Shown here piece by piece: positions 34,272 to 57,121 of a stretch of 64,000 nt of DNA. Below the pieces are notes generated by a model. The model saw only the letters and a list, made by a program, of their open reading frames with translations. It was not told the DNA's origin and searched no databases. The first letter of the stretch is position 1. Each line of letters begins with the position of its first letter. Source of the DNA: an uncultured Chitinophagales bacterium (GTDB lineage Bacteria; Bacteroidota; Rhodothermia; Balneolales; HLUCCA01); assembly GCA_964509715.1 (NCBI GenBank), contig CAZDYD010000001.1, positions 99-64,098 of the forward strand, given 5' to 3'. The translations under genes and the position numbers were made by a program.

Positions 34272-34392
34272 AGATCTTAGGGTTAAACGACAGTATGTAT
34301 TGGTATTCCATAAAACAATTGGAGCGGATATGAATCCGCAGGATGTTAACCATCCACAAACATGCGACCATATTTACAGGCCGCGTTATGAC

Positions 34393-34971: not shown

Positions 34972-35104
34972 AATGATATCCTTAACCTGGTTGAAGCCGG
35001 ATCCGATAACACACCGGATCCGATACTTCGTCATTGTCTATATATGTCTTTGACTCAATCAATTAACTCAATTGATGTTCAGCCATAAATGAAATATTGA
35101 ACCA

Positions 35105-37081: not shown

Positions 37082-37245
37082 AGGTTTTTGTTTTGATTTT
37101 GGGGGATGAATCGGGTTGTTGTTTGGCTTCGATTCAATCGTTTTCCGTGTCCGTTTTGGAACCACGAGTTTGGTTTGTTTATGCGATTCAGCGTTCGTAC
37201 TAGGTCATATTATGAGATGTACTTCTGTTCGAACTACTCTAAATG

Positions 37246-37809: not shown

Positions 37810-38259
37810 TTAAAGGTCGATTGATCGGAGTTCAGGAATGGCGTCGGCCAAACGTAATCCACGATCTGCTGCAAGATCGGCCAGAGAGACACCTTCCATT
37901 AGATTCTGAAGATTAAACCTTAACTGGGTCCAGCTTTCATGCATCGGGCAAGGTTTTTCTGATCCACATCCGGGCAATCCCAAAATACACTCCTTTAACA
38001 GGTATTCTCCATCAATTGATACGACGATATCACGAAAACTTATGTCGGCCGGTCTTCTGGACAACCGAACTCCACCATTTGGACCCTTATAGGATTCAAG
38101 AATTTCCGAATACGTTAATTGTTGAAGTACTTTGGTCAAAAAATAAAATGATACGTTCAGTTCAGAGCTGATCTTCTGTATCGTGATAAACTCTTCAACA
38201 TCTTTCTGTGCAAGAAGGATGGAAGCGCGGAGTCCATAGATACAGGATTTCGAAAGCAT
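37810..38259 (-). CDS. Rrf2-family transcriptional regulator with an Fe-S ligand set
   Basis: It has an Rrf2 winged-helix N-terminus ('YGLRASILLA..ISSELNVSFYFLTKVLQQL'). It also has Cys91, Cys98, Cys104 and His107 ('CILGLPGCGSEKPCPMH'). Confidence 0.88.
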   Translation of the reverse strand: MLSKSCIYGLRASILLAQKDVEEFITIQKISSELNVSFYFLTKVLQQLTYSEILESYKGPNGGVRLSRRPADISFRDIVVSIDGEYLLKECILGLPGCGSEKPCPMHESWTQLRFNLQNLMEGVSLADLAADRGLRLADAIPELRSIDL

Positions 38260-41583: not shown

Positions 41584-42897
41584 ATGAAATATTTGTCAAT
41601 TGTCGTCAAAACAGTTCTGCTAATTCTGATCGCTTTACATTCTCTGCTACATGCGCAGACAACTTCTCTTAACCGGAGCAATTATGATGGCAGTAATGCC
41701 GCCAATCGTGCCCAATATCTGGAGCGTGCTATCAAAATCCTGGAATCCGTTCCATTGATCGACGGACATAATGACGTACCCTGGCAATACCGTAATCGTG
41801 CAAATTATAAGATCAGTGAACTGGATTTCATGAATACATTGGCCATACAACGACCAATGCACACCGATATTCCCCGCATGAGAGCTGGTAGAGTTGGAGG
41901 TCAATTCTGGTCGGTTTATGTCCCCACAAACATCCCTGAAAGCGAGTCAGTTCAGGCCACCATCGAACAAATTGACTTTGTTTATAGACTTATTGATGCA
42001 TATCCAGACCATTTCGAATTGGCACTTACTGCCGACGATATTGAACGAGTTTTTAATAGCGGTAAGATTGCTTCACTAATTGGCATGGAAGGTGGACAAT
42101 CCATTGGAAATTCACTTCAGGTCCTCCGACAGATGTATGAACTCGGAGCAAGATACATGACAATCACACATGCACGAACGTTAGATTGGGCCGATGCAGC
42201 CACAGACGCACCAAGACATGACGGTCTCAACGGATTCGGTGAAGAAGTAATCCGTGAAATGAATTGGTTAGGGATGATGGTGGATCTGTCTCACGTTTCC
42301 GCACCAACCATGCGTGATGCCATCAGAGTATCAACAGCACCCGTCATCTTTTCACACTCTTCGGCCATGGGGTTAAACAGCCATCCACGTAATGTCCCCG
42401 ACGATGTGCTTGATATGCTAAAGACAAATAACGGGATCGTCATGGTCACCTATATTCCGGCTTTCATAGAAGAGTCCCTTCATGTGCACATCAGCAACAG
42501 AAATGCTGAACGTGCCAGACTCGATTATTTCTATACGGGTCAACCCGATAAAGTCAGCGAAAAAATGCGCTTATGGGATGAACAGAATCCTGCACCTGTA
42601 GCAACTTTAGAAACCGTTGTCGATCACATTGATTACATAAGAGACCGAATAGGTGTCGACTACATCGGCATCGGAGGTGATTATGACGGTATTCCGCTTC
42701 TTCCCGAAGGACTTAAAGACGTAAGTACCTATCCAGATCTGTTTGCTGAGTTATTATATAGAGGATATAGTGATGAAGATCTGAAAAAAATTGCAGGGCT
42801 CAACGCACTACGGGTAATGAGGGAGGTTGAACAGGAATCTATTCGATTGCGTACACTACGTCCCCGTGCTTCAGAAGCAATAATCCGTGATTTTTGA
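41584..42897 (+). CDS. membrane dipeptidase (peptidase family M19)
   Basis: It has 'IDGHNDVPWQ', 'DLSHVS' and 'IFSHSS' metal-ligand blocks and a signal peptide. I took ATG 41584 as the start. Confidence 0.9.
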   Translation: MKYLSIVVKTVLLILIALHSLLHAQTTSLNRSNYDGSNAANRAQYLERAIKILESVPLIDGHNDVPWQYRNRANYKISELDFMNTLAIQRPMHTDIPRMRAGRVGGQFWSVYVPTNIPESESVQATIEQIDFVYRLIDAYPDHFELALTADDIERVFNSGKIASLIGMEGGQSIGNSLQVLRQMYELGARYMTITHARTLDWADAATDAPRHDGLNGFGEEVIREMNWLGMMVDLSHVSAPTMRDAIRVSTAPVIFSHSSAMGLNSHPRNVPDDVLDMLKTNNGIVMVTYIPAFIEESLHVHISNRNAERARLDYFYTGQPDKVSEKMRLWDEQNPAPVATLETVVDHIDYIRDRIGVDYIGIGGDYDGIPLLPEGLKDVSTYPDLFAELLYRGYSDEDLKKIAGLNALRVMREVEQESIRLRTLRPRASEAIIRDF

Positions 42898-43229
42898 GTA
42901 GTCAATTGTTATTTGAGGTGTGATACCTTTCTTGCGATACTTTAGTACAGTTGAAACCAGTAAAAGCAAAGAGCTGGATTAACCCTCTTATAGTAACTAT
43001 ACGATTCAGATACGCAAATGATGTCAGACTCGGCACTAAAAACCGATAGATTTCTTCCTCAAGCTGCTAATACAGTATTTCTAAGCTATAGTGATCAGAG
43101 ATTTACTCAATAATACCAGTGCATTTATCAAATTCTTTTGATTCAGCATTGGCCTTCGATTTATCCATTTGAATTGGATAATTTTTACCTAATGCAAATT
43201 GTCTAACTGCTACACCTATCCGACACACA

Positions 43230-43733
43230 TTAATATCTGATTCTAAGAACCGTTGGTGAACCTTCTCCTTTAAAGTTGAGGAACATCAGATTCCCATAAT
43301 CCGATTCATCAAAATCTTCAAATTTTTGCTCGCCCAAGTAATGATTTGCGGCACGGGGAGTGGAATTTGAATGACCACAAACTAACACAACTCCACCGAG
43401 ATTTTGTCTCAAAATATCGTCCAGATCAGATGCATTCCGATGACTGTATATTTTCAATTCCAGTCCATAAAAATCAGCTGTTGGACCACACGTTTTACGG
43501 GTTCTGATAAAGTCTGTAGAATACACAGCCGTAACTCCAGTAGTTGACAACATGTTTTTGAGGACGGTAGCCCTGGAGACACCCTCTGGACTCAGATCCG
43601 GATCAGCAGAATCATCTACTTTCTCAGCATGCCTCACCAAAATCAAAGTTGTAGACTGCTGAGCTTCAGAGTCGATAGTCAAAAAACCCAAAGAGATTAT
43701 AATAACGACCAAAAAACTAATGAAATATTTCAT
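43230..43733 (-). CDS. secreted histidine phosphatase superfamily protein (SixA/PGAM-like)
   Basis: It has a signal peptide, the 'LVRHAEK' (RHG-type) motif, and 'VCGHSNSTP'. Confidence 0.8.
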   Translation of the reverse strand: MKYFISFLVVIIISLGFLTIDSEAQQSTTLILVRHAEKVDDSADPDLSPEGVSRATVLKNMLSTTGVTAVYSTDFIRTRKTCGPTADFYGLELKIYSHRNASDLDDILRQNLGGVVLVCGHSNSTPRAANHYLGEQKFEDFDESDYGNLMFLNFKGEGSPTVLRIRY

Positions 43734-43880
43734 ACTAAACCCAATCAAACTCTATTCATCGATTGATTATTTTATTGCTGCTAATGTATAAACATTGTAC
43801 TTCAATATATTAATTCTACCTAGTATTTATGCTATTTGTAAATTATAAATGAACAGAATTTCTATGCATTGAATATCACG

Positions 43881-46800
43881 TCATTTGATCAACATCATCT
43901 TGTCATTGAAAACTTTTCCGTTTGCAATCATACGAACAAAGTAAACACCAGAAGCTAACCCACGAGGTCTGAACTCAATTTCATAGTACCCGGCTTCATA
44001 TTCTTTATCGGCAACATCAAATACCATGAGGCCATTACTGTTGAAAATCTGAAGGCTGATGTTCATTCTTTCCGGTACAGTTACTGGTAATTTTGTCCAC
44101 TCCGAAAATGGATTCGGGAAATTATTACCCAGCTTGATTTCTCCATCTGCAAACAAGAATAGAATATTGATTTTCTGATCCAGTTCCAGTCCTCCGGCAA
44201 TGACCTTGAATGTAGCCTCACCTGCCTTCGACGAACTTACCTTGAATTCCGCAACCCCCTCGCTATCTGTAATCTCACGTACTATTGTGACGACATAATC
44301 CGGGTCAGATGGTTCGAGAATAATTAAAACATCAGAAAGTGGATCGCCATCGTCACTTATCAGTTTAATGGATACATCAGCCTGTTGCTGACCATTTGCC
44401 AAGATTCTACTGGCTGATGGTCTGGCAGTTGAGTTTTCCAGATCAATTTGATACGTAGTAACCGATGCTGTATTTGAATTCGTGCTTACTGACGTACTCG
44501 TCCCGGCTCGGACCCTATAGTAATACGTCGTCCCGGGTGACAGTCCAGTTACTTTGAATTCATTGATATTACCCACATTCAAGTTGTTGTAACCTGACAC
44601 CATCTGGGAGAAATTCTCATCCCTGGAGACATCCAAACGATATAAAGTAGCGCCGTTTACAAGCTCCCAGCTAGCTGTAAACTCTACGGCACCAAGTAAT
44701 ATGGGGAAGTTAGCTATCGGAGGGACCGGTATAAAATCAAAAACTGCCCGTGTATTGATATTTACTCGTCCTGCCATCACAGAAAACTCTACTCGTCCCG
44801 CATGGTCAGATCTAACTTGGAATGATGCATTACCCGCAATGTCTGATATACCCCGAAGTGTTATGATCTGTGCGTTCTCGTCTGTCGTATTAAGGGTTAC
44901 CGGAACTCCCTCCATGGCCTGTCCGTCTTCGCCTTTTATGATGATTTCAACAGTCCCAACAGCTACACCATCACCTAACACATTCCTCTGAACAACGTTC
45001 ACCTCCGTAAGGTTTGCATCAGCCTGAGGTGTTTGTGAGAGGGTCACATTAGAATTCTGACTGGTTCCTGTGGTTGCAACCGCTCTGACTCTGTAGTAAT
45101 ACTCATTCCCGGGATATAGGCCTGTCAGCCTGAAACTTGTTTCATTACCCACATTTCGGTCATTGAACCCGGTCAATAGTTCAGAAAAATCAGCAAACTC
45201 AGAAACATCTAATCTATAGGATGTCGCCCCACTAATTGGTTCCCAATTTGCTACAAATGTGCTTGCAAAAACATTGGTAGCCGGCCTTGAAACGGGAGCC
45301 ACTGGGATAAATGCCATTCTATATTCGGTTGAGACATTCACATTGATAGCCCTGGCACGATAAGTCACAAATTCTGCCCGACTATTTCTAACTGTAAATC
45401 TTGTCTTGCCATCTTCATCTGATATATCCGAAAGTACTTCAATTACAGATTGTCCTGTAAGTGCTGTTAACGTTACTTTAACTCCATCAAGAGGATTTCC
45501 AACCGCATCTCTCACAGTGATAGTAAACTGTCCGCGATCAGTTCCATTCGATAACACTTCTTCGACGTCTGATTCGAAAGAAGATGAGTTCGGATCTATG
45601 GCTATGGTCCTAACAGATTGTACTTCCGAATTAAGAGATTCGACATTATAGTTTGAATTTACAGCCCTGACTCTATAGTATAATCGAGTATCTGGCAAAA
45701 CATCTCTCAAAATATATGAGCTCACATCGCCGACGTTAAATGAGTCGAATCCCAGATAAGGTTGTGTGAAGTTGTTGTCATATGCAATGTCTATCTCATA
45801 GTGAGTAGCTTTATCTATCTCGTTCCATTCAGCTGTAAAACCAATGGCTTTGATATCACTGGGCGGTAACAAATCTGGTGTAAATGGGATTGTTGTGACA
45901 ACAATTGGATTACCGAACGGACCCGTTATTGTACCATTAGCATTCGTTGCCCGAATGCGGATATAATACCTTTCCACTGATTCGAGTCCAACAGCTTCGA
46001 ATATCGTTTCATTCCCATTATCAAAACCTGTATATGTAGATAATTTGTTCTGAAAATCAGGATCATAAGCTACATCGACCACATATTTTTCGGCGTTTTC
46101 AGCTGGTTCCCATGATATTTCGACTTGCTCTGTACCAATTTCAACAACCTCAATTTCAGATGGTGCATCCAGAATTGTATGAACACCCATCACGTCTGAG
46201 ATCCCTCCAGTTGAATTGTTTTCGTCACTTCTGGCTCTTACACGATAAAAATATCTTCGGTTTGGACTCAACTCTTCAACGAGAAACGTAGTATCGGCCG
46301 ATACAACTCTCCCATTATAATCTGATAAAACGTTATTAAACAGACTATCTGTTGCAACAAAAAGTATATATTGATCGACCCGTGGGACACTTCGCCAGTT
46401 TGCCCTGAATGACCGGGAAGTAACATTTGTAGCCGTTGAAATTACAGGTATTTCCGGTAAGGTAAACACCCTCACCCGTTCAGAGTTTTCACTTGTCAAT
46501 CCTGAAGTCGAGCTACTGGCCCGCACCCTGATGTAATGAGCAGATGCAGACTCAAGCCCACTCAATAACAATGTAGTTGATGAGCCATTGTTATAATTTT
46601 CATAGCCGGGAAGAAATTTGGTGAACAACGAATCTGTTGCTACATCGACTATGTATCTGTCTATTCCCGCTACCGGTTGCCAATTAACAGTAAAAGATGA
46701 ACTGGTTATGGAGGTCGTTGGCTGCATTACCGGCGGACGACTCGGTGTATTAACAGAACCGATTGCCGAGCTTACACTCGTTACATTTAAATTCGTATTT

Positions 46801-48824
46801 CTGGCACGAAGTCTGTAAAAGTAACGTGATAATGGCTGTACGTTCTCTACAGTAAATGATGTGACATTTCCGGTACTTCTGTTATTATAACCGGTTAAAA
46901 ATGTACTGAAGGTCGAATCGGTTGAAACATCAAGAAAATACGTATCGGTTCGGGGAACATTTTGCCAGTTCACCTGAAACTGAGTTGATTGAACATCAGT
47001 AGTGGCCGAAAGCACGGGAGCATCCGGTAAAGTATTTAATCCTATTACTATTGAATAGCTGCTACTTTGGTTACTTATAGAGCTCCTTGCACGCACACGA
47101 TAAAAATATGACGTAGCAGAGGTCAGACCCGTCACATTGAAACTGGTATTATTACCGACATTCCTGGCTTCAAAACCGTTTACGTATCCACTGAAATTTG
47201 AAAAAGACGATACATCAAGTATGTATTCATTAGCCCCGTTTACAGCTTCCCAATTGGCCGTAAATGTTGATGATGTGATATTCGATGCCTGTCTCGCAAC
47301 AGGAGGCACACTTGAAGTCACCGCTTCCATGGCATTGGAGTTACCACTCGTTAGACTTTGCTGTGTGTTAACAGACCTGACTCTATAATAGTACTGTGTT
47401 AACGGATTCAATCCGGATACATTGAACGAAGTAACATTGCCAACATTCCGGTTATTATAACCACTCACAAATGAACCGAAATTAGGATCTGTAGACACAT
47501 CCAGTCGGTATTGATCTGCCAGACAGTTGGCATTCCACCGAGCGGTAAATGAGGTAGCTTGTACATTGGATGCAGCTTCGATCAACGGTGGTGCGATTCT
47601 GGTAGACTGGGAATGAGCATCAATTATAAATCCAGTTGAAGTTGCTATGGACTGAACTCTTCTGTTATTTGGGGTAAGCTCAACATTAAGAAAATGCCTC
47701 ACATTCCATTGTTGCTCAATATACCAGAAGTTAAAATCTACAGGACCTAAAGGTATTGCAAACCCACCATCACCAATATACCGCACTCCACATGGATCAA
47801 TTTGGTCGTTTTTTATTGGATGTGTTCGTTTATATCCATGGTTGTCGTGTTCAAAGACAAAACGCACATTAAACTGTTCAAAAATTGGGGCCCAGTATTG
47901 TCGTACTTCATATCCTCTTCCAGGTACAGCCTCTCTTTTACTTGGATAGGCAGCTACGTGATACACCGGAAATACGTTCGTCACATTACGACGTGCATTC
48001 AGTTGATTTACAAGCCATGATGTCTGTGTGCCTTCAATACGTACAGTGTGATCTGTATTGAGTACAATCAGACTTAGATAATCGCTGAAATCCAGCACCC
48101 TGTATCCCTGAGTTCCAGGGAAATTAAATAGAGCATGAAAATATTTTGCATCCGCTGGTTGTCCCCCAAATCGTTGGGGCAATTCATGGTTTCCAAGTGA
48201 TGCAACAATAGGTATATGATAATCCTGTGGAGTTTTCATGTACTTGGTCCACTCAGATAAAAACTTGAAGTACCTATTCAATGTGTTAGCATTGTATTCA
48301 TTCGCTTCATTCAAATGGACCAAATCACCAGCCAAAATTGCAAACATCGGATTGGTTTGTCTAACACGTAAAGCTGATTCAATAAAAAACTCTGTTTCCA
48401 ATGCCGGATCGGTACCGTCACCATACACATCACCCGTAACCATAAACCGAACCGTATTGTCCATATTGGTCGGCATGGTTCTGAAATATTGACTCTGAGG
48501 ATCATTGCCAATTCTGAAAGCATAGTTGGTAGCAGGGGTTAGACCAGTAATTTGTACCGTCTTCCGCTTAACAGATGCGTCGGGAATCGTATGTACCGTT
48601 CCAGTTACTGTAACCCAGGGATCACCGGAATTCCTGACCCTGTAAGATACTTCGGCGACACCGGATGTATCGTCCTCGATCCAGTTGATGATCATGGTGC
48701 GCGTCGGATCATTCATCCATTCGAGATACACGATCGTCGAATCTGCATAAGATTGGGCATGTAGTTTTCCTGCAAATAGAACCAGGAAAAACAACAATAT
48801 GATATATGATTTGTTTTGTTGCAT
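43881..48824 (-). CDS. giant T9SS-secreted multidomain protein: purple-acid-phosphatase-like metallophosphoesterase + 9 FN3-like modules + 3 Ig-like domains + T9SS C-terminal sorting domain
   Basis: It has a signal peptide (IILLFFLVLFAGKLHAQ). Metallophosphatase motifs are 'VTGDVYGD', 'AILAGDLVH', 'SLGNHE' and 'FEHDNHGY'. Nine modules end in 'Y(Y/F)YRVRA'. The last 82 aa ('NFPNPFS...GVYFVRMIANGKVFNDKMMLIK', about 43884-44129) look like a type-A T9SS CTD. I prefer ATG 48824 over the track's TTG at 48842. Confidence 0.88.
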   Translation of the reverse strand: MQQNKSYIILLFFLVLFAGKLHAQSYADSTIVYLEWMNDPTRTMIINWIEDDTSGVAEVSYRVRNSGDPWVTVTGTVHTIPDASVKRKTVQITGLTPATNYAFRIGNDPQSQYFRTMPTNMDNTVRFMVTGDVYGDGTDPALETEFFIESALRVRQTNPMFAILAGDLVHLNEANEYNANTLNRYFKFLSEWTKYMKTPQDYHIPIVASLGNHELPQRFGGQPADAKYFHALFNFPGTQGYRVLDFSDYLSLIVLNTDHTVRIEGTQTSWLVNQLNARRNVTNVFPVYHVAAYPSKREAVPGRGYEVRQYWAPIFEQFNVRFVFEHDNHGYKRTHPIKNDQIDPCGVRYIGDGGFAIPLGPVDFNFWYIEQQWNVRHFLNVELTPNNRRVQSIATSTGFIIDAHSQSTRIAPPLIEAASNVQATSFTARWNANCLADQYRLDVSTDPNFGSFVSGYNNRNVGNVTSFNVSGLNPLTQYYYRVRSVNTQQSLTSGNSNAMEAVTSSVPPVARQASNITSSTFTANWEAVNGANEYILDVSSFSNFSGYVNGFEARNVGNNTSFNVTGLTSATSYFYRVRARSSISNQSSSYSIVIGLNTLPDAPVLSATTDVQSTQFQVNWQNVPRTDTYFLDVSTDSTFSTFLTGYNNRSTGNVTSFTVENVQPLSRYFYRLRARNTNLNVTSVSSAIGSVNTPSRPPVMQPTTSITSSSFTVNWQPVAGIDRYIVDVATDSLFTKFLPGYENYNNGSSTTLLLSGLESASAHYIRVRASSSTSGLTSENSERVRVFTLPEIPVISTATNVTSRSFRANWRSVPRVDQYILFVATDSLFNNVLSDYNGRVVSADTTFLVEELSPNRRYFYRVRARSDENNSTGGISDVMGVHTILDAPSEIEVVEIGTEQVEISWEPAENAEKYVVDVAYDPDFQNKLSTYTGFDNGNETIFEAVGLESVERYYIRIRATNANGTITGPFGNPIVVTTIPFTPDLLPPSDIKAIGFTAEWNEIDKATHYEIDIAYDNNFTQPYLGFDSFNVGDVSSYILRDVLPDTRLYYRVRAVNSNYNVESLNSEVQSVRTIAIDPNSSSFESDVEEVLSNGTDRGQFTITVRDAVGNPLDGVKVTLTALTGQSVIEVLSDISDEDGKTRFTVRNSRAEFVTYRARAINVNVSTEYRMAFIPVAPVSRPATNVFASTFVANWEPISGATSYRLDVSEFADFSELLTGFNDRNVGNETSFRLTGLYPGNEYYYRVRAVATTGTSQNSNVTLSQTPQADANLTEVNVVQRNVLGDGVAVGTVEIIIKGEDGQAMEGVPVTLNTTDENAQIITLRGISDIAGNASFQVRSDHAGRVEFSVMAGRVNINTRAVFDFIPVPPIANFPILLGAVEFTASWELVNGATLYRLDVSRDENFSQMVSGYNNLNVGNINEFKVTGLSPGTTYYYRVRAGTSTSVSTNSNTASVTTYQIDLENSTARPSASRILANGQQQADVSIKLISDDGDPLSDVLIILEPSDPDYVVTIVREITDSEGVAEFKVSSSKAGEATFKVIAGGLELDQKINILFLFADGEIKLGNNFPNPFSEWTKLPVTVPERMNISLQIFNSNGLMVFDVADKEYEAGYYEIEFRPRGLASGVYFVRMIANGKVFNDKMMLIK
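45597..47591 (-). repeat. seven tandem 285-bp (95-aa) FN3-like coding modules in exact register
   Basis: The conserved R-V/L/I-R codon triplets sit at 47376, 47091, 46806, 46521, 46236, 45951 and 45666, spaced exactly 285 nt apart. Two further modules lie at about 45015-45299 and 44439-44723, each preceded by an Ig-like insert of about 97-99 aa. Confidence 0.85.
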
Positions 48825-48835
48825 AGCCAAGTAAT

Positions 48836-49600
48836 TTACCAAGGTAACTGACTTTTAGCAATTTCAAGATCGGCATGATCATCAACCTCAACCCAACCCC
48901 GGTGAATGGATCGATAATGCAGTTTACCTTTTGATGCCAAATGATTTAACAAATCTGTCATATATGCCATGTCCAACGTTCGACTACTATTCCAAGCATT
49001 ACTTATTTGATTCCCATCGTTTTTTGCATTCTCATATTCGGCACGAACGATCTCACATCCTTTTGAACTCAATTTGATCAAACCTATGTATTGTCCCTGT
49101 ATTTCATTGATGTCCTTTGTTTTACTTCCCAACGACAGTACCCTGCCCTCGGGACCCTTAATAAACGTTTCAGCATCGCTCAATGGATCATCAAATCGCA
49201 TCGACCAATACGAGTTCCACTCTTCATCACAAGCAATTACAATATCTCGCTCATCTTCCATCATTGCATTGAGAACTTCTTTTGAATATACAATATCGCC
49301 GTATGCTATAATGACATCACCATACAGTTGATCCTCAGCACAAAACAGGCTACTGATCATATTCGTTGTTTCGTAACGTGGGTTAATAATCTTAGTAACC
49401 CGAGCATCCGTAATTTTTTCCTGCTTATATCCCGCGATAACAAAAATGTCCTTTATCCCACATGCTTCCAATACATCCAGATGCCATAACAACAATGGAC
49501 GTCCTGCCGCTTCTACCATACATTTTGGCACATGATCTGTATATGGTCTTAATCGTGTTCCTTGCCCGGCGGCAAGAATAATTGAATTAAATGAGCTCAT
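48836..49600 (-). CDS. nucleotidyltransferase (LicC/Cj1416-like cytidylyltransferase fold); candidate CTP:phosphoglutamine cytidylyltransferase
   Basis: It has the N-terminal NTP-binding loop 'ILAAGQGTRLRPYTDHVPKCMV' and is 254 aa. It overlaps the upstream GATase gene by 14 nt. Its stop lies 11 nt before the giant gene's ATG. Confidence 0.7.
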   Translation of the reverse strand: MSSFNSIILAAGQGTRLRPYTDHVPKCMVEAAGRPLLLWHLDVLEACGIKDIFVIAGYKQEKITDARVTKIINPRYETTNMISSLFCAEDQLYGDVIIAYGDIVYSKEVLNAMMEDERDIVIACDEEWNSYWSMRFDDPLSDAETFIKGPEGRVLSLGSKTKDINEIQGQYIGLIKLSSKGCEIVRAEYENAKNDGNQISNAWNSSRTLDMAYMTDLLNHLASKGKLHYRSIHRGWVEVDDHADLEIAKSQLPW

Positions 49601-50261
49601 CTGTCTGTTTGAATACCTGTCTGAATGATTGTATATCTATTGTGTTAAAAATCTCTTCTCTCTCAGGATGCCACATCCAGCCCTCCCATGCCATTTTTTC
49701 AGAACGCATCGCTTCGATTTGATTATCCTCAGAACGGGCTATTACAAGATATCCCTCCGGACACTTACTCAGCGATAATCCATGAAAACTGTTAACATTG
49801 TGGTTAAATTGACCTTTTAAATTGTGTCGGGTTCGAATATGCCCCTGCACCGATTCAAGTTCAACCCCTCCAAAAACACCAAGCATTTGCATGCCCCTGC
49901 ATATCCCAAGTACCGGAAGCCTATGTTTCATCGCAAAGCGTAGTAATACCAACTCCGTGATGTCACGATCGCTACAAGTCCCAATGTCATTCCCTCCCGA
50001 TAATACAATTCCCGAAACATTCTGAGAATTAATAAACTGGAGAAGTTTCGCGGTTTTATTGCGTTTAAGAAGGATCTCGTCTGTCGGTAACCGACCGGGT
50101 CTAACAGTTAATCCATCCGCTTCGACCAATGAGTTAGGAACAGGTATAGCTACATAGCCTGCTACACTTATAAATTGAACCAACGCCTGGTCAAGTGCAT
50201 CACGGCGCTCACCCCGATCAGGGTATTCATCAATTCGTTGTGAAACTAGGAGTACACTCAT
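49587..50261 (-). CDS. class I glutamine amidotransferase-fold hydrolase (peptidase C26 / Cj1417-like); candidate gamma-glutamyl-CDP-amidate hydrolase
   Basis: It has the nucleophile elbow 'LGICRGMQML' and the His/Glu region 'WHPERE'. It is 224 aa. It overlaps the upstream gene by 4 nt. Confidence 0.7.
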   Translation of the reverse strand: MSVLLVSQRIDEYPDRGERRDALDQALVQFISVAGYVAIPVPNSLVEADGLTVRPGRLPTDEILLKRNKTAKLLQFINSQNVSGIVLSGGNDIGTCSDRDITELVLLRFAMKHRLPVLGICRGMQMLGVFGGVELESVQGHIRTRHNLKGQFNHNVNSFHGLSLSKCPEGYLVIARSEDNQIEAMRSEKMAWEGWMWHPEREEIFNTIDIQSFRQVFKQTDELI

Positions 50262-52585
50262 GCTATAACCTCAACCTTACAGTTGGCACAATCAATGTCG
50301 AGTCTCCTCGAATTTGACCAAAGATGGTACTTGGATTCACCTGCACCAATTATGGCTGGCAATCCCAACTCATTCGCTCTGATAGCCATATGGCTGTTAG
50401 CACCACCATAACACGTAATCAAACCGGCGATTTCATGCGAAAACAACCAATCATAACCTGGATCTGCACTTGATATACAAACTATTTTACCGACCAGGTT
50501 TTGGGTATTTTCTGAGCTACAAACTTCGGCATTAATGCGCTGTTGTGTTATGAAATTGGGCTCAGCCTCCGGAAGTTCAAATGCCCAGATATCATGCTCG
50601 GAAGTAAGGAGTGGTGGCAAAACGACCCTGCATGTTCTGGCATATGCTTCCCGTCCACTTTGAATCGATTGTTCCAGAATCTGTTTAGGTTCCACTGATG
50701 AGCGATACATCTCATAAAAAACATCGATACTTGCAAAGGACATATCATCTCTTGTGAATCCATGTAGTTCGCCAAATTCTGCTATCAGTTCAATCGCATC
50801 ACTCAGGTTTCTTGTAAACTCAAACTTAGATGACTCGCGTAATTCAATACCTGCCTGTAGAAACTCAAGGAATCCAATTACATCATTGTCCATTTGATGC
50901 TTCTTGAGCAACTGTTCGATTTTTTTCATCTGATCCAAGCCTAATTTGAATTCAGGTTTTGAATGCTTGCCCTCGCGATCAACATGATCCCAATCAAAGT
51001 AAAGATCGGGAGATTTATCATACCTACTCGACAAAATATCGTAGGTCCCGGGACGCAAGTGACCATATTTTTCGAGGAAATCATCCCGATCCAATCCGGC
51101 AAGATCACGTGGCAACTGACTCGATACCGCATCCAGACTGTTGATAAAGCGATCACTTTCAGCTTGGGTCATCACACCCATTGCAACCAGTGATTTTAAC
51201 AACGAAACCGATATAAAACCCGCTCGAGCTAATCCGGCAAATGGCAACGTTCCATAGCGCTTACAGTCTTCCAGCAGCCAGTATATTCTGGTTATATGAT
51301 CTGTCGTTGCACCGTATAATCTGGACCTGCGTTCAGCCAGTGTCTTTACTCTTTCAGCGTCACCAACCCATAATCCGCTTTTTGCATTGATAATACGATT
51401 TGTAAGCGATCTTAGACTTTCTCTGAGCGAACGGCAATCTTCGTCCGAGAAACCGGATTCTCTTAACCGACTCATCCGGTCATCCAAATCAAAGGTATAA
51501 CAGGTATATACTATTTCAAATTCGACTTTATCATGCAACTGAGGATTAGCTTCCAATCGATCCAGATAGTAATCCACAAGTCTGTCGGCCAGATCCGTAT
51601 CAATATCTTTAGGGATAAATGAATTGAAACTCACCCGCACATCAACGAATGGTTGTCCACCGAAATCTATCAACAAGGGATGACTTCTCAGATTTTTGTA
51701 CCCATAATTGTTACGTTGATATGCCCAAGTAGAATTCGTAATCAACTCCCGGTAAAGAGAAAAAGCAAGGGGACGAGGCCGGGTTCCAATGATTTCGGCA
51801 GGATTCCAATCGGGCATTACACCATAAATTGTACGCCGACCATGCAAAAAAGGGTGCGGTTTAAATCCATCTGATGCTTTTTTTGCTACTTTCTTTAAGA
51901 TTTCACTATGGTCAGTCACATTAAAAACCGACTCTCGCATCACCAATGGACGTGCCTGAAGCAAATAAATCGAACCATCTGCCGTAACTCCAAACTCAAC
52001 ATCCAATGGTTGACCCGGTACAAGTACTTCTAATTCATCCAACAATTTGAGAATAGGTACCAGGTCGTAAGAAACATCATGCTCGGAAGATTTTGCTGAG
52101 TAGAATGTTCGGGTATTTTTCCCGGAGGTTACCGCAGTTGTATCATCTCCATCGGTCCACTCAATAACCCTATAGGGTGCCCCTGTAACTGAATCGGCAG
52201 TAAAAGCTACTCCTGATCTCACTACGTTCTGTAGCATTGGCTGCACAAGAACTTCATCTTTAAGGTCAGCCTGATCACCGAATGATTGTATGACCTTTTC
52301 GATTGCTTTCTTTAGCCCTTCCCTTCCCGAAACATGTAAAACAGAATCATAATAACCTGCCAACGACTCCAGTGCACTATCTTCTGCTACACCACTTGAA
52401 CGCACGATCATGCTTCCCGATGACCAGTCCAAAGATAAAATTCGGTCAAGTATTGCTTGTTCATCCGATTGCCAATCGGCAAGACGAAAATAATACAATG
52501 GCAAAACCTTGCAGGATCGAACTTCGGGAGAGAGCAATTCAAGAGTCCGTGCTTTGGATGCCAGTGTAATTTGTTTATCTGCCAT
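50258..52585 (-). CDS. PEP-utilising-enzyme family phosphotransferase (ATP-grasp N-domain + C-terminal phosphohistidine swivel domain); candidate L-glutamine kinase (Cj1418-like)
   Basis: It has an N-terminal PPDK_N-type region ('MIVRSSGVAEDS', 'VLVQPM'). The swivel motif 'GGANSHMAIRANELGLPAIIG' has its His at residue 732 of 775 (codon 50390-50392). No PEP/pyruvate TIM-barrel domain follows it. Confidence 0.7.
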   Translation of the reverse strand: MADKQITLASKARTLELLSPEVRSCKVLPLYYFRLADWQSDEQAILDRILSLDWSSGSMIVRSSGVAEDSALESLAGYYDSVLHVSGREGLKKAIEKVIQSFGDQADLKDEVLVQPMLQNVVRSGVAFTADSVTGAPYRVIEWTDGDDTTAVTSGKNTRTFYSAKSSEHDVSYDLVPILKLLDELEVLVPGQPLDVEFGVTADGSIYLLQARPLVMRESVFNVTDHSEILKKVAKKASDGFKPHPFLHGRRTIYGVMPDWNPAEIIGTRPRPLAFSLYRELITNSTWAYQRNNYGYKNLRSHPLLIDFGGQPFVDVRVSFNSFIPKDIDTDLADRLVDYYLDRLEANPQLHDKVEFEIVYTCYTFDLDDRMSRLRESGFSDEDCRSLRESLRSLTNRIINAKSGLWVGDAERVKTLAERRSRLYGATTDHITRIYWLLEDCKRYGTLPFAGLARAGFISVSLLKSLVAMGVMTQAESDRFINSLDAVSSQLPRDLAGLDRDDFLEKYGHLRPGTYDILSSRYDKSPDLYFDWDHVDREGKHSKPEFKLGLDQMKKIEQLLKKHQMDNDVIGFLEFLQAGIELRESSKFEFTRNLSDAIELIAEFGELHGFTRDDMSFASIDVFYEMYRSSVEPKQILEQSIQSGREAYARTCRVVLPPLLTSEHDIWAFELPEAEPNFITQQRINAEVCSSENTQNLVGKIVCISSADPGYDWLFSHEIAGLITCYGGANSHMAIRANELGLPAIIGAGESKYHLWSNSRRLDIDCANCKVEVIA

Positions 52586-52640
52586 TAAATTGATACCGTT
52601 TCTTTATTTCAAACATCATTGGTTGTTAACGTGCACACTC

Positions 52641-53171
52641 TCAGACCACACCTAACTCATCAAGTTGACGCAACAATTCAGAAAAAGTCTCTTGTTGTCC
52701 CATAGTGGGATCAAATCGAAGCATAATATCTGGATTCTTTGGGAAGTCTACTTTCAAATCGATACCGGCAACATTATTGATCTCATTACGATCATAACGC
52801 TTATAGATCCCCTTTGAGTCTCTTCGACGTAATTCCTCTACAGGGACATCCAAAAAAATCTCGCAATAACCGGGCAGATGGTCCCGATTCCACTTATGAA
52901 CCTCCTCGAATAGAGAAATTGTTGCGATAGCAACATCAAAACCCTGATCGGCAAGTAGCTTGCACAATTTGGAATATCGAAGCGCCAAGGCTAACCTATC
53001 TTCTCTGGTATGGGCCTTAACAGCTCCTACTACAGCTCTGATTTCGTCTCCATCCAGTTGAACAACAGTCCGACCATGCTCACGTAGGTGTTTCACAAGC
53101 ATACTGCACATAGTGCTTTTGCCGGAATCTGATAATCCGGTTAGCCAGTAAACACGTGCAGAATTCTTCAT
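52641..53171 (-). CDS. APS-kinase-fold nucleotide 3'-kinase (CysC/Cj1415-like); candidate cytidine diphosphoramidate kinase
   Basis: It has the P-loop 'YWLTGLSDSGKST', 'LDGDEIR', and 'FLDVPVEELRRRDSKGIYK'. It is 176 aa. No sulfate adenylyltransferase gene is in the window. Confidence 0.7.
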   Translation of the reverse strand: MKNSARVYWLTGLSDSGKSTMCSMLVKHLREHGRTVVQLDGDEIRAVVGAVKAHTREDRLALALRYSKLCKLLADQGFDVAIATISLFEEVHKWNRDHLPGYCEIFLDVPVEELRRRDSKGIYKRYDRNEINNVAGIDLKVDFPKNPDIMLRFDPTMGQQETFSELLRQLDELGVV

Positions 53172-53221
53172 GATTTCAAATAGTTTATGGATTATAATCC
53201 CTAATAACTGTAATCAATCTA

Positions 53222-53245
53222 ATCACAAAACGATGAATTTGTGAT
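53222..53245. promoter_or_regulatory. perfect 8-8-8 palindrome in the divergent promoter region
   Basis: ATCACAAA-acgatgaa-TTTGTGAT lies about 50 nt upstream of the kinase gene start and about 140 nt upstream of the DAO-like gene. Confidence 0.45.
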
Positions 53246-53385
53246 AGGGTGCAATTTCACGACCTACAAGACCGTCAAACTACGAAGCTTTGAAATAATT
53301 ACCAATTTACATACACCCATTTGAAGTAAAATCAAATCCGTGTACCTTCAGTTTCCGAAACAGTTTATCATTTACTATTCGATCC

Positions 53386-54342
53386 ATGAAATCAATTGCT
53401 ATCATTGGACAGGGCGTCATTGGACTCACCTCGGCCGAGGCATTACTGAATGCCGGTTATCACGTTGACATCATTTCAAAGGATGATTTACCCATGACGT
53501 CATCTATGGGCGCTGGTGCATATTGGTGGCCACATAAAGCCTATCCTCCACAGCGTGTGTCCCGCTGGTCTAAGGTATCCTATGACCGGTATAAGGAACT
53601 ATCCGCTATTGCTGGATCAGGTATATATATGCACGAACATTTCCGTTACTGTATCATTGATGATGAAACGAGATATGCACTGGAGTTGACCGATTCATGG
53701 GAAATCATAGAACAAAAGGATATCCCATTTAACGTTTCAGAAGCTTTCAGATGTATCGTCCCGATTATGGATGTTCCAGTGTTCATGCCTTGGCTCAAAG
53801 CAACCGTACAGAAATTAGGCGCGAGATTTATAACCCGCGAATTATCAAGTCTGGATGAATTGCATGACGAGTATGATATAATGATCAATTGTTCAGGTCT
53901 CGGAGCAAAATCATTAGCCGATGACTCGACGGTTTACCCCATTAGAGGACAAATCCTGAGGATGGAGAAACCAGCAGATTTTTCCAACTCGTTCAGATTG
54001 GTCCACCAACCACCCGGACTCACACTCATTCTGCCCCGTTCTGGTGATCTTTTACTTGGAGGTACCACTTCTGAAAATGATTTCAATACTACACCTTCCG
54101 AAGCCGACACACATGCCATTATTGAAAGATGTGCAAAAGTAGTTCCAGAAGTTCGTGATTTGAAGTTACTTGGTACGAGCGCTGCACTCCGACCTGGCAG
54201 ACCTGAAGTTCGATTAGATGCACAAACTCTGTCAAATGGGTCTGTGGTAATTCATAACTACGGTCATGGTGGATCAGGATACACCGTAGCATTTGGTTGC
54301 GCAGTAGAGGTTCTTGAGATCCTAAAGCACGTTACGAGTTGA
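53386..54342 (+). CDS. FAD-dependent oxidoreductase, D-amino-acid oxidase family
   Basis: It has the dinucleotide fold 'IAIIGQGVIGLTSA' and the DAAO-type C-terminal signature 'HNYGHGGSGYTVAFGCA'. Confidence 0.85.
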   Translation: MKSIAIIGQGVIGLTSAEALLNAGYHVDIISKDDLPMTSSMGAGAYWWPHKAYPPQRVSRWSKVSYDRYKELSAIAGSGIYMHEHFRYCIIDDETRYALELTDSWEIIEQKDIPFNVSEAFRCIVPIMDVPVFMPWLKATVQKLGARFITRELSSLDELHDEYDIMINCSGLGAKSLADDSTVYPIRGQILRMEKPADFSNSFRLVHQPPGLTLILPRSGDLLLGGTTSENDFNTTPSEADTHAIIERCAKVVPEVRDLKLLGTSAALRPGRPEVRLDAQTLSNGSVVIHNYGHGGSGYTVAFGCAVEVLEILKHVTS

Positions 54343-57121
54343 TGGATTGAAACTTACTCTCCAATAGTTGCATACTTTCATCTACACCACTCCAATCCGC
54401 GGGTGCCCCGTTGATCATCAATTGGGCAGATCTTTTGAGGAATATTGATGCGGCTTTGTCTTTGGGATTTTTCTGGAGCACATCATTGAAGTGCACACTG
54501 GCATTTGTGAAGTTCTTGCTATAGAACTCTCTGAGTCCGGCCTCAAAATCATCTTTGGTATTCAACTCGAGCGCCATTTGTTCATCATCATCACCTTCTA
54601 CTACACCGAAAACATCAAGAACCGACTTTTTCCCTTTGACCCTTGTTTTGCCAAGATATCTGAGATGAGGTTGAGCTGATTCGCCAAGTCCATCTTTTAC
54701 ATCAGAACTGATAATAATCCTGTTGTCAAAGAGCTTGGTCAGACCCTCAAGTCGAGAAGCAGTGTTGACGACATCTGAGATTACGGTTCCTTCCATACGC
54801 AATTCTTCGCCAATAATCCCAAGCATCAGTTCTCCGGAATGAATACCCGTTCCGGTAATAATGGGCTCAAGATTTTTAAGGTTACGCTCCTTATTAAGTG
54901 CCTTAAGTGCGGCCGTCATACTAATGGCAGCATCAACCGCGTCTTTCGGTCCACCAGGGAACAAGGCCATGATGGCATCACCGATAAATTTATCGATAAA
55001 ACCACCTTTTTCACGAATCACTGGACTGACCACCCCCAAAAATGCATTGATAAAATCAAATGCTTCTTTTGGTGTCATCTTTTCCGATAGTCTTGTGAAA
55101 TCTTTGATATCGGTAAACATGATCGACATGTTTTGCTGTTCCTGGTCGCCCAGTTTGATGTCAAGTACACTGTCATAACCGAGGAAACCAAGAAATTCGT
55201 GAGGCACAAACCGACTAAACGCATGATTGATCTTGCTAAGCTCAAGATGCGTTTTAATTCGAACCAACAGCTCATCCTTAGCGATGGGCTTGGTAACATA
55301 GTCATTAGCGCCCACTCTGAATGCTTCCAATATATCGGTCACATGATTCTTAGCGGTGAGCATGATGATCGGAAGCTCAATTTTGTCATATTCAAGTCTA
55401 AGCTCAGTGCACACCTCATACCCATTCATCTGAGGCATCATAATGTCAAGCAGGACAACATCGGGAAGATACCCATCTTTGATGGCTTGTAAGGCACTTG
55501 GACCATTAAAGTAGGTGCTCACTTCGTACCCAGCTTTACCAAGTTGAGCCGTCAGTACCTTCACGTTTATGACTTCATCATCAATAACCATGATTTTGAA
55601 CTTGTCGCCAAGACGCGCATTTCGATGCGGACGAATTTGTGTAAGGGCTTTGTTATTGGCGCGTGGTGATATTGAATAATTATCAAATTCGTCGTTGACC
55701 CTAGCCGGTTCCTGGGTAGAATTCAATTGAAAACTAAAAAACGAACCGAATCCCTCGGCCGACTCCATGGTAAGCTTGCTGCCATGGAGCTCAATCAGCT
55801 TATTGCTAATCTTGAGACCAAGTCCCGAATTATGACCACCCACTCCTTGTTGTACGAGCTCACCTTCAAATGAATTCAATATTACTTGAAGATTATTTTG
55901 AGATAAGCCTTTCCCGGTATCTTCAATCATAATTGTGACTTTATCGCCACTTCGATCCACATCAACGGCCACATATCCCTCATCGGTAAATTTCACTGAG
56001 TTCCCGACCAGGTTGTGTAGGATTTGTTCGAGTTTGCCCTCATCCGCTATTACATTCACAAAATCAGTCGGGACATTATTTCTGAGTTCAATCCCTTTTG
56101 TTGACGCCGTTGAAAATTGTAGCGCTAGTACTTTGCTCACAATCGACCTGAGATGGACCGGTGTTTCATTGAGTTGAATGGTTTCATAGCGGATCTTCGA
56201 AAGATCAAGTAAATCATTTAAAAGGTAGGTCAGACGTCGGCCACTTTCAGCGATCAATTTCAGGTTCAAATTGACAGCGGGAGACAGTTCCCCTTCAGCG
56301 CCTTCAATTAATAATTCACTAATACCGATAATACCACCCAATGGAGTTCTAAGTTCATGGGCAACCATTGCAACATGTTCATCCTTCAATCTGTCATTGA
56401 TCATAAGGCGGGCCATTCCCTCACCGGTTGTTTGAGGTTGAGCATCAACTACAGACCGTTGAATATGAGTAGTGCCACCACCATACTGATTCACTATAAG
56501 ATAAGTGAGGCTTAGAACAGATCCACTTACTACAACGTGCATCCCGATTTTTTGATACAGATCAGAAAAATGGATACCAATAAATCCCAATAAACCCAGT
56601 GCAGTTGCGATTACGGTCAGAATCAACATGCTAACTGCTGGCAAATTAGAAGCCCGGTCATCTTTCAATACGTACAAGCTAAAACCTGACGCAAACAATC
56701 CGATAAACAGAAGTATAACTATGGATGCAGCTATGGCAACATCCGTAGACAGAAAGGGTCCCACAATAGTCAGGAAAACGGTAAGACCAAAACACATCGC
56801 CAAATATGTATCGGTGATGCCATTATTCTCGAAGGCACGGGTCAGATTCTTAAGTACCATCAGCAACTGAAAACAGACCGCCGAAGTGATAAAAATGATG
56901 AACTTGTAGGCAGTAAGGGTACTGTAAACCGAATAACTTGAAAATACACCAAGATCGATTATGGCAAGGAATGCACCCGCAAGCAATACAAAGATACTTG
57001 CGTTTAGAAAAATTCCGGTTCTCGATTGAAGGTATCTGAAACCTAAATAAACAGATATGGCTATATGAAGGCCATAAAAAAGACCCTTGCCAACGGCTTC
57101 ATAAAACATTGACTCTAACAT
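54332..57121 (-). CDS. hybrid 7TM sensor histidine kinase - receiver - class III adenylate/guanylate cyclase
   Basis: It has about 7 N-terminal TM helices. The H-box is 'HELRTPL'. The HATPase blocks are 'EDTGKGL' and 'GLGLKIS'. The REC domain reads 'VIDDE..LLDIMMPQMNGYE..LTAK'. The cyclase blocks are 'MFTDIKDFTRLSE', 'GDAIMALF' and 'VVNTASRLEG'. The C-terminus is TPR-like. Confidence 0.88.
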   Translation of the reverse strand: MLESMFYEAVGKGLFYGLHIAISVYLGFRYLQSRTGIFLNASIFVLLAGAFLAIIDLGVFSSYSVYSTLTAYKFIIFITSAVCFQLLMVLKNLTRAFENNGITDTYLAMCFGLTVFLTIVGPFLSTDVAIAASIVILLFIGLFASGFSLYVLKDDRASNLPAVSMLILTVIATALGLLGFIGIHFSDLYQKIGMHVVVSGSVLSLTYLIVNQYGGGTTHIQRSVVDAQPQTTGEGMARLMINDRLKDEHVAMVAHELRTPLGGIIGISELLIEGAEGELSPAVNLNLKLIAESGRRLTYLLNDLLDLSKIRYETIQLNETPVHLRSIVSKVLALQFSTASTKGIELRNNVPTDFVNVIADEGKLEQILHNLVGNSVKFTDEGYVAVDVDRSGDKVTIMIEDTGKGLSQNNLQVILNSFEGELVQQGVGGHNSGLGLKISNKLIELHGSKLTMESAEGFGSFFSFQLNSTQEPARVNDEFDNYSISPRANNKALTQIRPHRNARLGDKFKIMVIDDEVINVKVLTAQLGKAGYEVSTYFNGPSALQAIKDGYLPDVVLLDIMMPQMNGYEVCTELRLEYDKIELPIIMLTAKNHVTDILEAFRVGANDYVTKPIAKDELLVRIKTHLELSKINHAFSRFVPHEFLGFLGYDSVLDIKLGDQEQQNMSIMFTDIKDFTRLSEKMTPKEAFDFINAFLGVVSPVIREKGGFIDKFIGDAIMALFPGGPKDAVDAAISMTAALKALNKERNLKNLEPIITGTGIHSGELMLGIIGEELRMEGTVISDVVNTASRLEGLTKLFDNRIIISSDVKDGLGESAQPHLRYLGKTRVKGKKSVLDVFGVVEGDDDEQMALELNTKDDFEAGLREFYSKNFTNASVHFNDVLQKNPKDKAASIFLKRSAQLMINGAPADWSGVDESMQLLESKFQSINS

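Follow-up and report, generated by a model that had tools for sequence, protein, structure and literature searches.

The closest described system is the O-methyl phosphoramidate (MeOPN) locus cj1415c–cj1422c of Campylobacter jejuni, which is taken here from two later accounts (Taylor and Raushel, 2017–2018, as summarised in PMC6429109; McNally, 2007, via PMC3907429). Decoration of a glycan through a phosphorus–nitrogen (P–N) bond has been chemically demonstrated only in Campylobacter (PMC6429109), and the phosphoramidate transfer step of that genus had not been reconstituted as of 2025 (PMC12409886). We analysed a 64-kb stretch of DNA (64,000 nucleotides of contig CAZDYD010000001.1; hereafter the window). 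Its minus strand carries five head-to-tail open reading frames (ORFs) from 53171 to 43881, consisting of a four-gene cassette related to cj1415–cj1418 and a giant gene of 1647 aa. The giant gene codes for a predicted secreted protein with a purple acid phosphatase (PAP) fold and a sorting domain of the type IX secretion system (T9SS). Judged from its gene families, the cassette belongs to the known MeOPN-type donor pathway, for which the phylum is new. What is new here is an orphan donor module without transferase or methyltransferase genes, fused to a T9SS cargo gene with a remodelled PAP metal site. The adjacency is best read as a lineage-specific operon fusion, and not as a new pathway. The coordinates and the gene content given for this region in a preliminary description all hold on re-reading of the window.

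The first gene of the cassette (52641–53171, minus strand) encodes a Cj1415-like kinase of 176 aa, a candidate cytidine diphosphoramidate 3'-kinase, which matches PF01583 APS_kinase (E = 6e-30). The protein scores 188 bits against NF004041 (cut-off 127) and fails the equivalog of true adenosine 5'-phosphosulfate (APS) kinases, TIGR00455 (103.7 vs 138.7 bits). Its P-loop GLSDSGKST is intact. The second gene (50258–52585, minus strand) encodes a Cj1418-like L-glutamine kinase of 775 aa with PPDK_N (PF01326, ATP-grasp) and PEP-utilizers (PF00391) domains. It scores 984 bits against NF004508 (cut-off 501), homologues at 53–75% identity carry the JGI label 'glutamine kinase', and the catalytic H732 in GGANSHMAIRA is invariant in 19 sequences. 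The third gene (49587–50261, minus strand) encodes a putative Cj1417-like gamma-glutamyl-CDP-amidate hydrolase of 224 aa with the class I amidotransferase fold (Peptidase_C26 and GATase; hereafter GATase). Its best NCBIfam match is NF045546 GCDPHdlase (E = 4e-26), at 92 bits under the cut-off of 250, and the catalytic Cys (GICRGMQ) and His-Pro-Glu (WHPERE) motifs were found by direct reading. The fourth gene (48836–49600, minus strand) encodes a putative Cj1416-like CTP:phosphoglutamine cytidylyltransferase of 254 aa (NTP_transf_3; hereafter NTase). The closest solved relative of the NTase is LicC, a CTP:phosphocholine cytidylyltransferase (1JYK, E = 2e-15); this is a family-level match, as no Cj1416-specific model was available. 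Sequence searches of the PDB gave no C. jejuni Cj1416, Cj1417 or Cj1418 structure among the matches. The kinase and glutamine kinase genes are separated by a 55-nt gap, the glutamine kinase and GATase genes overlap by 4 nt, and the GATase and NTase genes overlap by 14 nt.

This four-gene signature corresponds by family to the Cj1415–Cj1418 donor pathway (PMC6429109; PMC3907429). According to family membership, L-glutamine would be converted to N-phospho-glutamine, CDP-glutamine, CDP-amidate and then 3'-phospho-CDP-amidate. No N-terminal signal peptide was seen on reading the four donor enzymes (no predictor was used). As in C. jejuni, the same four enzyme families are present (a glutamine kinase with a phosphoenolpyruvate-utilizer swivel domain, a LicC-like NTase, an amidotransferase-fold hydrolase and an APS-kinase-like 3'-kinase), and the genes are tightly packed on one strand. 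Unlike C. jejuni, the window holds in its 64 kb neither a transferase in the role of Cj1421/Cj1422 nor a methyltransferase in the role of Cj1419/Cj1420. The cassette lies outside a capsule locus, its gene order is kinase, glutamine kinase, GATase and NTase, and a T9SS cargo gene follows. The organism differs too, being Balneolaceae-like and of the FCB (Fibrobacterota–Chlorobiota–Bacteroidota) group, and the product is expected to be non-methylated. The nearest named relatives place the organism in or near Balneolaceae (P0023; L007). A 3'-phosphorylated nucleotide donor made by an APS-kinase homologue is also the logic of 3'-phosphoadenosine 5'-phosphosulfate (PAPS), sulfotransferases and CysQ; unlike that system, the window cassette has no CysQ-like or sulfotransferase gene nearby.

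For comparison, the glutamine kinase was used in a scan of one genome per species, which gave at least 579 matching stretches in many phyla. The donor cassette is therefore very widespread, and its accessory genes vary (TagF-like, methyltransferase, CysQ-like and sulfotransferase-fold). Among the scan matches listed, 80 cassette loci were taken and their neighbouring genes were clustered; individual loci are cited below by number. The NTase gene adjoins the glutamine kinase gene in 69 of 83 loci, and the kinase gene clusters with it in 54–60 of the 83. The proportions of nonsynonymous (pN) and synonymous (pS) differences were obtained against the related loci L003, L090 and L004. All four cassette genes show pN of 0.17–0.38 and pS of 0.74–0.92, the latter being saturated (glutamine kinase against L003: 0.17 and 0.84), and the PAP domain of the giant protein shows the same pattern. 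Because pN is far below the saturated pS, the cassette is under purifying selection. The pathway is being kept, and therefore its product is presumably used.

At the junction, the stop codon TAA of the NTase gene (48838–48836) is followed by attacttggct (48825–48835, minus strand, read directly) and by the ATG of the giant gene at 48824. The gap of 11 nt reported earlier was reproduced, and the TTG at 48842 does extend the giant ORF across the NTase stop. The frame of L003 equivalent to this extension holds an in-frame TAG; thus, ATG 48824 is the conserved start of the giant gene. In agreement with the ATG start, an identical giant protein is 1647 aa long in the public gene call; contigs of 110–195 kb that encode identical or nearly identical proteins are present in NCBI, ENA and Logan. 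The window, L002, L003 and L006 share a spacing of precisely 11 nt, with the pattern TAA-wTTn5GCT/ACT-ATG, and the spacing is 91 nt in L090. Synonymous sites between the window and L003, the only 11-nt locus measured, are saturated (pS 0.77–0.86). Since the spacing recurs in three orthologous loci, and L003 is synonymously saturated against the window, it is beyond chance. The claim of a single operon was to fail if a separate promoter or terminator lay at the junction; the consensus scan, which is blind to promoters other than the sigma-70 type, finds neither. The counts from these promoter and terminator scans do not exceed those in shuffled sequence, and they carry little information in this phylum. 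With the 11-nt gap, no consensus promoter or terminator, and the spacing kept in four loci, the cassette and the giant gene are likely co-transcribed in the window genome. The proposal of one operon stands for the window, where the two resemble one transcription unit, but does not carry over to a sub-clade described below, in which the giant gene is probably independent.

The giant protein (43881–48824, minus strand) consists of a signal peptide, a PAP fold, about ten fn3 domains, three Big_1 domains and a T9SS-type C-terminal domain. The Sec signal peptide (48756–48824, minus strand) was found by direct reading as MQQNKSYIILLFFLVLFAGKLHA, with QS after the cleavage mark, and its position is conserved in the orthologues. 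The PAP-fold domain (residues 24–410; 47595–48755, minus strand) is composed of an N-terminal fn3-like part and a metallophosphoesterase part (PF16656 Pur_ac_phosph_N and PF00149 Metallophos). In the Pfam analysis it is the only catalytic module downstream of the cassette in the operon, as the preliminary description had stated. The stalk (residues about 411–1565; 44130–47594, minus strand) contains the fn3-like domains (E = 3e-54, 8 scored stretches in Pfam) and the three Big_1 domains (E = 8e-34, 3 stretches), and its repeat motifs were mapped as F[TR]A.W ... Y[YF][YFI]R[VLI]RA. The putative T9SS type A C-terminal sorting domain (residues 1569–1647; 43884–44120, minus strand) matches PF18962 Por_Secre_tail with E = 3.9e-5 and 24.3 bits (cut-off 27) and TIGR04183 with 21.6 bits (cut-off 23). 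The motifs NFPNPF ... GVYFVRM ... KMMLIK were recognised by reading, and the L090 orthologue has a precomputed PF18962 match.

T9SS type A cargo with long immunoglobulin (Ig)-like stalks forms a general class. The giant protein shares with this class the signal peptide, the fn3/Big_1 repeats, a predicted sorting domain of about 80 aa, the NxPNPF motif and a terminal K-x-x-L-x-K-like motif, and it differs in that its C-terminal domain scores just under the curated cut-offs. To our knowledge, no T9SS cargo with an N-terminal PAP-fold passenger has been characterised. No T9SS machinery genes lie within the 64-kb window. From the predicted signal peptide and C-terminal domain, the PAP domain would be extracellular and would cap a stalk of about 13 Ig-like domains.

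The AlphaFold model of residues 24–430 has a pLDDT of 90.1. In a Foldseek search with it, the top 23 matches are plant PAPs with TM scores of 0.70–0.78, and the best is the sweet potato PAP (1xzw, E = 1e-23, TM 0.78). The two-domain fold is shared with plant-type PAPs and with the bacterial 'acid phosphatase type 7', and GD, GNHE, YH and the final His are kept. Five of the seven canonical PAP ligands (D, D, Y, N, H, H, H) are retained. In contrast to plant-type PAPs, the giant protein has GDLVH, in which the Fe(III)-ligand Tyr is replaced by His170, and EHDNH, in which one His of the HxH motif is replaced by Asp327. It also differs in the addition of about 1200 aa of Ig-like repeats and the T9SS domain, and its identity to the solved PAPs is about 18%. 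The motifs GDVYG, GDLVH, GNHE, YHV and EHDNH are invariant across five orthologues, and so is the His170/Asp327 variant; those orthologues that were measured (L003, L004) are synonymously saturated against the window. In an alignment of 38 relatives, mostly single-domain proteins of about 400 aa, more than 90% have GDxAY and HxH where the giant protein has H170 and D327; at these places the relatives read GGDxAY and E(N/H)H(D/N)H, and the giant clade GDLVH and EHDNH. Although the model shows a PAP fold, the N-terminal domain is probably no tyrosinate–iron enzyme and is unlikely to be 'purple'. We take GDLxH to resemble motif II of the Mre11/SbcD diesterases.

A homologue search with the PAP domain gave only proteins mostly of single-domain size (about 300–450 aa) with at most 38% identity, and missed the close orthologues; an exhaustive representative search with the same domain recovered the long forms. 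Two scans of metagenome contigs, one with the PAP domain alone and one with the five-sequence alignment, gave no confirmed relative. The longer T9SS relatives vary further at the metal site, with GNND in place of GNHE in P0288, P0290 and P0291, and VADGE in P0287. This variation suggests that the giant-protein family is diversifying and may be partly non-catalytic.

The expected transferase and methyltransferase genes, reported as missing in the preliminary description, are indeed absent within the 64 kb. Pfam scans of 48 window ORFs found no Glyphos_transf (PF04464) and no methyltransferase. Hidden Markov models (HMMs) were built from 45 cassette-linked methyltransferases, 23 TagF-like and 13 CysQ-like proteins of other loci, and none of them matched the window, translated in all six frames, at a threshold as loose as E<=10. 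Among the cassette loci, recurrent partners are Methyltransf_11 genes (43–44 loci), TagF-like genes (32 loci; PF04464 plus a related cluster, hhalign probability 93%) and CysQ-like Inositol_P genes (13–14 loci). Among the 46 loci whose flanks each extend to 8 kb or more, TagF-like genes are found in 24, methyltransferase genes in 25 and neither in 6. Lacking a nearby transferase and methyltransferase is a minority state among cassette loci. The TagF-like class serves here as an empirical proxy taken from cassette linkage, membership of Cj1421/Cj1422 in PF04464 being unconfirmed, and an annotated glycerophosphotransferase has been treated as a gene separate from Cj1421/Cj1422 (PMC8949473). Transferases can be remote, because only 24 of the 46 full-flank loci carry a TagF-like gene nearby and because one MeOPN transferase of C. 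jejuni 81-176 lies well away from the biosynthesis genes (PMC3907429). Since the cassette is intact and under purifying selection, the transferase is probably encoded elsewhere in the window genome.

A giant gene with PAP, fn3 and Big_1 domains follows the cassette in L002, L003, L006, L090, L004/L005, L091 and L092. The glutamine kinase identity to the window is 90% for L002, 75% for L003, 73% for L006, 72% for L090 and 71% for L004/L005 (L091 and L092 were unmeasured). Among 85 loci compared before L090, L091 and L092 were added, a homologue of the PAP domain adjoins the cassette only in the window, L002, L003, L004/L005 and L006. No such gene adjoins the cassette in about 75 more distant loci. 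The adjacency, for which conservation in relatives had been proposed as a check, is kept within a single clade (at least 71% identity of the glutamine kinase) but not beyond it. The upstream gene order (histidine kinase–response regulator–cyclase, DEAD helicase, TPR, pseudouridine synthase, MscS and DUF349) is equally kept across the clade, and the order breaks downstream of the giant gene. The junction is no better conserved than this background synteny. Because unrelated upstream genes are equally syntenic, synteny alone is no argument for a functional link. In L092, two ORFs (446 and 340 aa; 6869–9191) stand in place of one glutamine kinase gene, and the giant gene is split too (1–4224). 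The splits reflect either decay or an assembly error, and an assembly error is likely because the contig splits the giant gene as well.

The next relatives, L007 (Balneolaceae metagenome-assembled genome, SLKI01000094), L088 and L089, have glutamine kinases 64–68% identical to that of the window. These sister Balneolales cassettes have the same four genes in the same order and the closest outgroup glutamine kinases. They differ from the window in lying among genes for NeuB, glycosyltransferases of families 2 and 4 (GT2, GT4) and ABC-2 transporters, and no giant gene and no gene for a D-amino-acid-oxidase-like enzyme (DAO; see below) is found in them. A PF04464 Glyphos_transf gene lies between the GATase and NTase genes in all three loci. 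The NTase gene is followed by genes for X260, a P-loop protein, and Y323, a GT-A-like protein, and a Methyltransf_11/23 gene is added in L089. X260 has an N-terminal Walker A motif and weak dNK/AAA matches. Y323 and its relative Y313 are GT-A-like, with SGERT and DADM motifs, and match no Pfam family; for Y313 of L004, only a faint GT2 signal was obtained. Y313 (313 aa) is encoded between the NTase and giant genes in L004/L005, L091 and L092, is 38–41% identical to Y323 of L088 and L007, and has no homologue in the window. The positions of the X260, Y323 and Y313 genes are 15175–16925 in L088, 15017–16826 in L007, 15780–16523 in L089, 6044–6985 in L004, 4535–5476 in L091 and 4550–5491 in L092. 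In the Y313 sub-clade, an AT-rich spacer of 260–330 nt precedes the giant gene (L004 6986–7247; L091 4269–4534; L092 4225–4549). Inside this otherwise divergent spacer, a block of about 30 nt, AGATTnTnTAATTTGCTAGACTA...AAAAATCA, is conserved, and it is a candidate promoter or operator. The block was not found in the window. The giant gene is probably an independent unit in L004/L005, L091 and L092.

The following reconstruction is the simplest that these loci allow. In the ancestor of this Balneolaceae-like clade, the donor module would have belonged to a surface-polysaccharide locus with TagF-like, X260, Y323 and sometimes methyltransferase genes. In the clade of the window, the module has the DAO gene on one side and the giant T9SS gene on the other, and would have lost its TagF-like gene and the gene for X260. 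In the sub-clade of the window, Y313 and the giant gene's own upstream spacer would then have been deleted, bringing the giant ORF to 11 nt behind the NTase stop. The 11-nt junction is most likely a derived product of deletion, and the adjacency is probably a by-product of gene loss.

We lean slightly towards an operon fusion that gives co-expression, with the donor-consuming transferase encoded remotely. A transferase on the cytoplasmic side, encoded elsewhere, would consume the donor and would probably place a non-methylated phosphoramidate on a surface glycan. The giant protein would be exported by Sec and then by the T9SS, and would be shown on its Ig-like stalk. The PAP domain with its remodelled site would hydrolyse extracellular phosphoesters and would have no access to the nucleotide donor. 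The operon fusion would lead to co-expression, and any biochemical link would run only via the cell-surface polysaccharide. Of the hypotheses raised in the preliminary description, co-regulation only is the one that best fits the evolutionary reconstruction; its phosphate-scavenging variant was considered and rejected, as is described below for the neighbouring phosphatase gene.

Several points weigh against this reading. Co-transcription is a prediction, and promoters of the Bacteroidota type lie outside the reach of the scan. The polarity of the change (deletion of Y313 vs its insertion) was judged from three outgroup loci in place of a rooted tree. The encoding of the transferase elsewhere is an assumption, the search having covered the 64-kb window. 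That four lineages keep precisely 11 nt (with synonymous saturation measured against L003 only) points to selection for coupled expression, a hint that the fusion is not purely accidental. Furthermore, the closest outgroup homologue of the giant protein, P0285 (1177 aa, PAP domain 46% identical, with the same His/Asp variant), is encoded between a gene for a Wzc-type tyrosine kinase (BY-kinase) and two Wzi capsule-assembly genes, together with methyltransferases (L093 653–12241 = L094). The contig of P0285 and that of the L089 cassette have GC contents of 0.349 vs 0.347, a tetranucleotide correlation r of 0.98 and the same sample series, and the two are probably of one genome. The context of P0285 would fit a real tie between the giant family and a decorated polysaccharide.

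If such a tie exists, the cassette and the PAP domain may be a writer and an eraser. A remote transferase would decorate a capsule- or LPS-like (lipopolysaccharide-like) glycan, the surface PAP domain would trim P–N or P–O groups or cleave phosphodiesters, and the operon would couple decoration to editing. We regard this as unlikely, although several observations speak for it: the 11-nt junction is kept in four lineages (with saturation measured against L003 only), the Tyr to His and His to Asp replacements stand at ligand positions where over 90% of relatives have Y and H, P0285 shares the variant in its Wzc/Wzi context on a contig resembling that of L089, and GDLxH is similar to the diesterase motif named above. 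However, this is a single outgroup context. A second long homologue, P0286, has the canonical ligands and adjoins aconitase, distant single-domain homologues occur in unrelated contexts (e.g. flagellin and inositol catabolism genes), and the giant gene has its own upstream region in the Y313 sub-clade.

A more far-reaching form of the same idea is that the operon holds both halves of a surface phosphoramidate cycle. The decoration would be transferase-independent or carried out by a remote transferase, non-methylated, and placed on a capsule-like glycan or on the glycan that anchors T9SS cargo. The stalk-displayed PAP domain would have evolved into a phosphoramidase or phosphodiesterase, its Fe-tyrosinate site having been rebuilt to His/Asp. 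The two parts jointly are, in our estimate, quite improbable. If true, this would be the first phosphoramidate modification of a glycan outside Campylobacter, together with the first dedicated extracellular eraser.

The preliminary description had also proposed that the giant cargo, or the glycan or anionic LPS that anchors T9SS cargo, is the acceptor of the phosphoramidate. Cargo of T9SS type A is attached to an anionic LPS, and the Porphyromonas form of this LPS carries a phosphorylated mannan. Together with the likely co-transcription of the cassette and the giant gene, this speaks for the proposal. Against it, no transferase is encoded nearby in the window, and the sister cassettes lie in ordinary polysaccharide loci without such a cargo gene. 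The Bacteroidota O-glycosylation motif D[ST][AILVMT] is not enriched in the giant protein (5 observed vs 6.1 expected). In addition, we know of no protein decorated with phosphoramidate in this way. We therefore give the acceptor proposal little credence.

It is very improbable that the cassette is a relic that lost its transferase and is decaying, with a meaningless adjacency. The loss of the TagF-like, X260, methyltransferase and, in this sub-clade, Y313 genes would agree with decay, as would the split glutamine kinase of L092. However, in the window, L003, L004, L006, L090 and L091 none of the four genes is truncated and the catalytic motifs are intact, pN is far below the saturated pS, and the L092 contig, which splits the giant gene also, likely contains an assembly error. 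Least probable is the earlier suggestion that the PAP-like domain processes, or transfers from, 3'-phospho-CDP-amidate in place of the missing transferase: it is the sole additional catalytic domain in the operon and metallophosphoesterases can act on nucleotides, but the proposal is largely refuted because of topology, the domain being exported behind a Sec signal peptide with a T9SS C-terminal domain and the donor enzymes (and hence the donor) being apparently cytoplasmic, and moreover the fold is that of the hydrolytic plant PAPs and no such domain is found in about 75 other cassette loci.

The Balneolaceae-like clade is a natural 'minimal' case, in which the donor module is under selection, has no consumer nearby and is fused to the gene of a secreted enzyme. 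The clade is useful for asking about other uses of the donor, and about the link of a surface phosphoesterase family to phospho-decorated polysaccharides.

Sulfotransferase-fold genes (PF00685) are found beside the cassette in five loci: L063 (13685–14434, minus strand), L022, L078, L043 (two copies) and L065. In L063, the gene adjoins the cassette, and TagF-like and methyltransferase genes are lacking. Because the donor is an analogue of PAPS, a sulfotransferase-fold transferase is conceivable, and these genes could represent an alternative class of phosphoramidate transferase. The only sulfotransferase-family gene of the window, Sulfotransfer_3 (23697–24620, plus strand), was considered for the missing transferase and rejected: it has no detectable similarity to the cassette-linked sulfotransferases and lies 24 kb from the cassette. 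In L061 (5033–5815) and 12–13 other loci (cluster 7), the cassette contains a CysQ-like Inositol_P phosphatase gene. CysQ clears 3'-phosphoadenosine 5'-phosphate, and by analogy the CysQ-like genes are consistent with clearing of a 3',5'-bisphosphate nucleotide by-product. Glutamine kinases with at least 50% identity occur in Pseudomonas, Chitinibacter, Leptospira, Synechococcus, Nitrospira, Nitrospina, Verrucomicrobiota, Actinomycetota and Bacteroidota. Such unusually high conservation suggests a wide horizontal spread.

Divergent from the cassette, a gene at 53386–54342 (plus strand) encodes the DAO, a flavin-dependent (FAD) D-amino-acid-oxidase-like enzyme (PF01266, E = 3e-36). The DAO gene adjoins the cassette in L001, L003, L004/L005, L006, L090, L091 and L092, and is absent from all other cassette loci. 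Within the clade it is a conserved neighbour, standing throughout on the side of the cassette that faces away from the giant gene. The 214 nt from which the DAO gene and the cassette diverge (53172–53385) are the presumed promoter region of the operon. By direct reading, TTGATT and TATAAT separated by 15 nt are found about 20 nt before ATG 53171; the scan requires a spacer of 16–18 nt and hence did not flag this site. An Rfam scan of 42800–54500 gave nothing credible and no glutamine riboswitch, and no family matched within 53172–53385.

On the other side of the operon, a secreted small histidine phosphatase of branch 1 (167 aa; PF00300 His_Phos_1, E = 4e-9, with a signal peptide) is encoded at 43230–43733 on the minus strand, 147 nt after the giant gene (132 nt from an upstream TTG at 43748). 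A sigma-70-like site is located at 43842–43813, within this gap. As described earlier, the gene follows the giant gene and its product is secreted, but it is not a conserved member of the locus; L003 is the one relative that has it, on the far side of a convergent gene. A phosphate-scavenging regulon, which would fit a PAP together with His_Phos_1, was rejected because His_Phos_1 is not conserved. Over almost its whole length, the phosphatase can be aligned to the NCBIfam profile of PmrG, an LPS core heptose(II)-phosphate phosphatase, but the score is far under the threshold (E = 9e-4, 18.7 bits vs 170). Farther along the window, a nitrous-oxide reductase cluster is located at 30374–37722 on the minus strand, with a NosZ-like propeller protein, NosD, NosL, an ABC ATPase and permease, and a cytochrome c. 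An Rrf2 regulator is encoded beside this cluster at 37810–38259.

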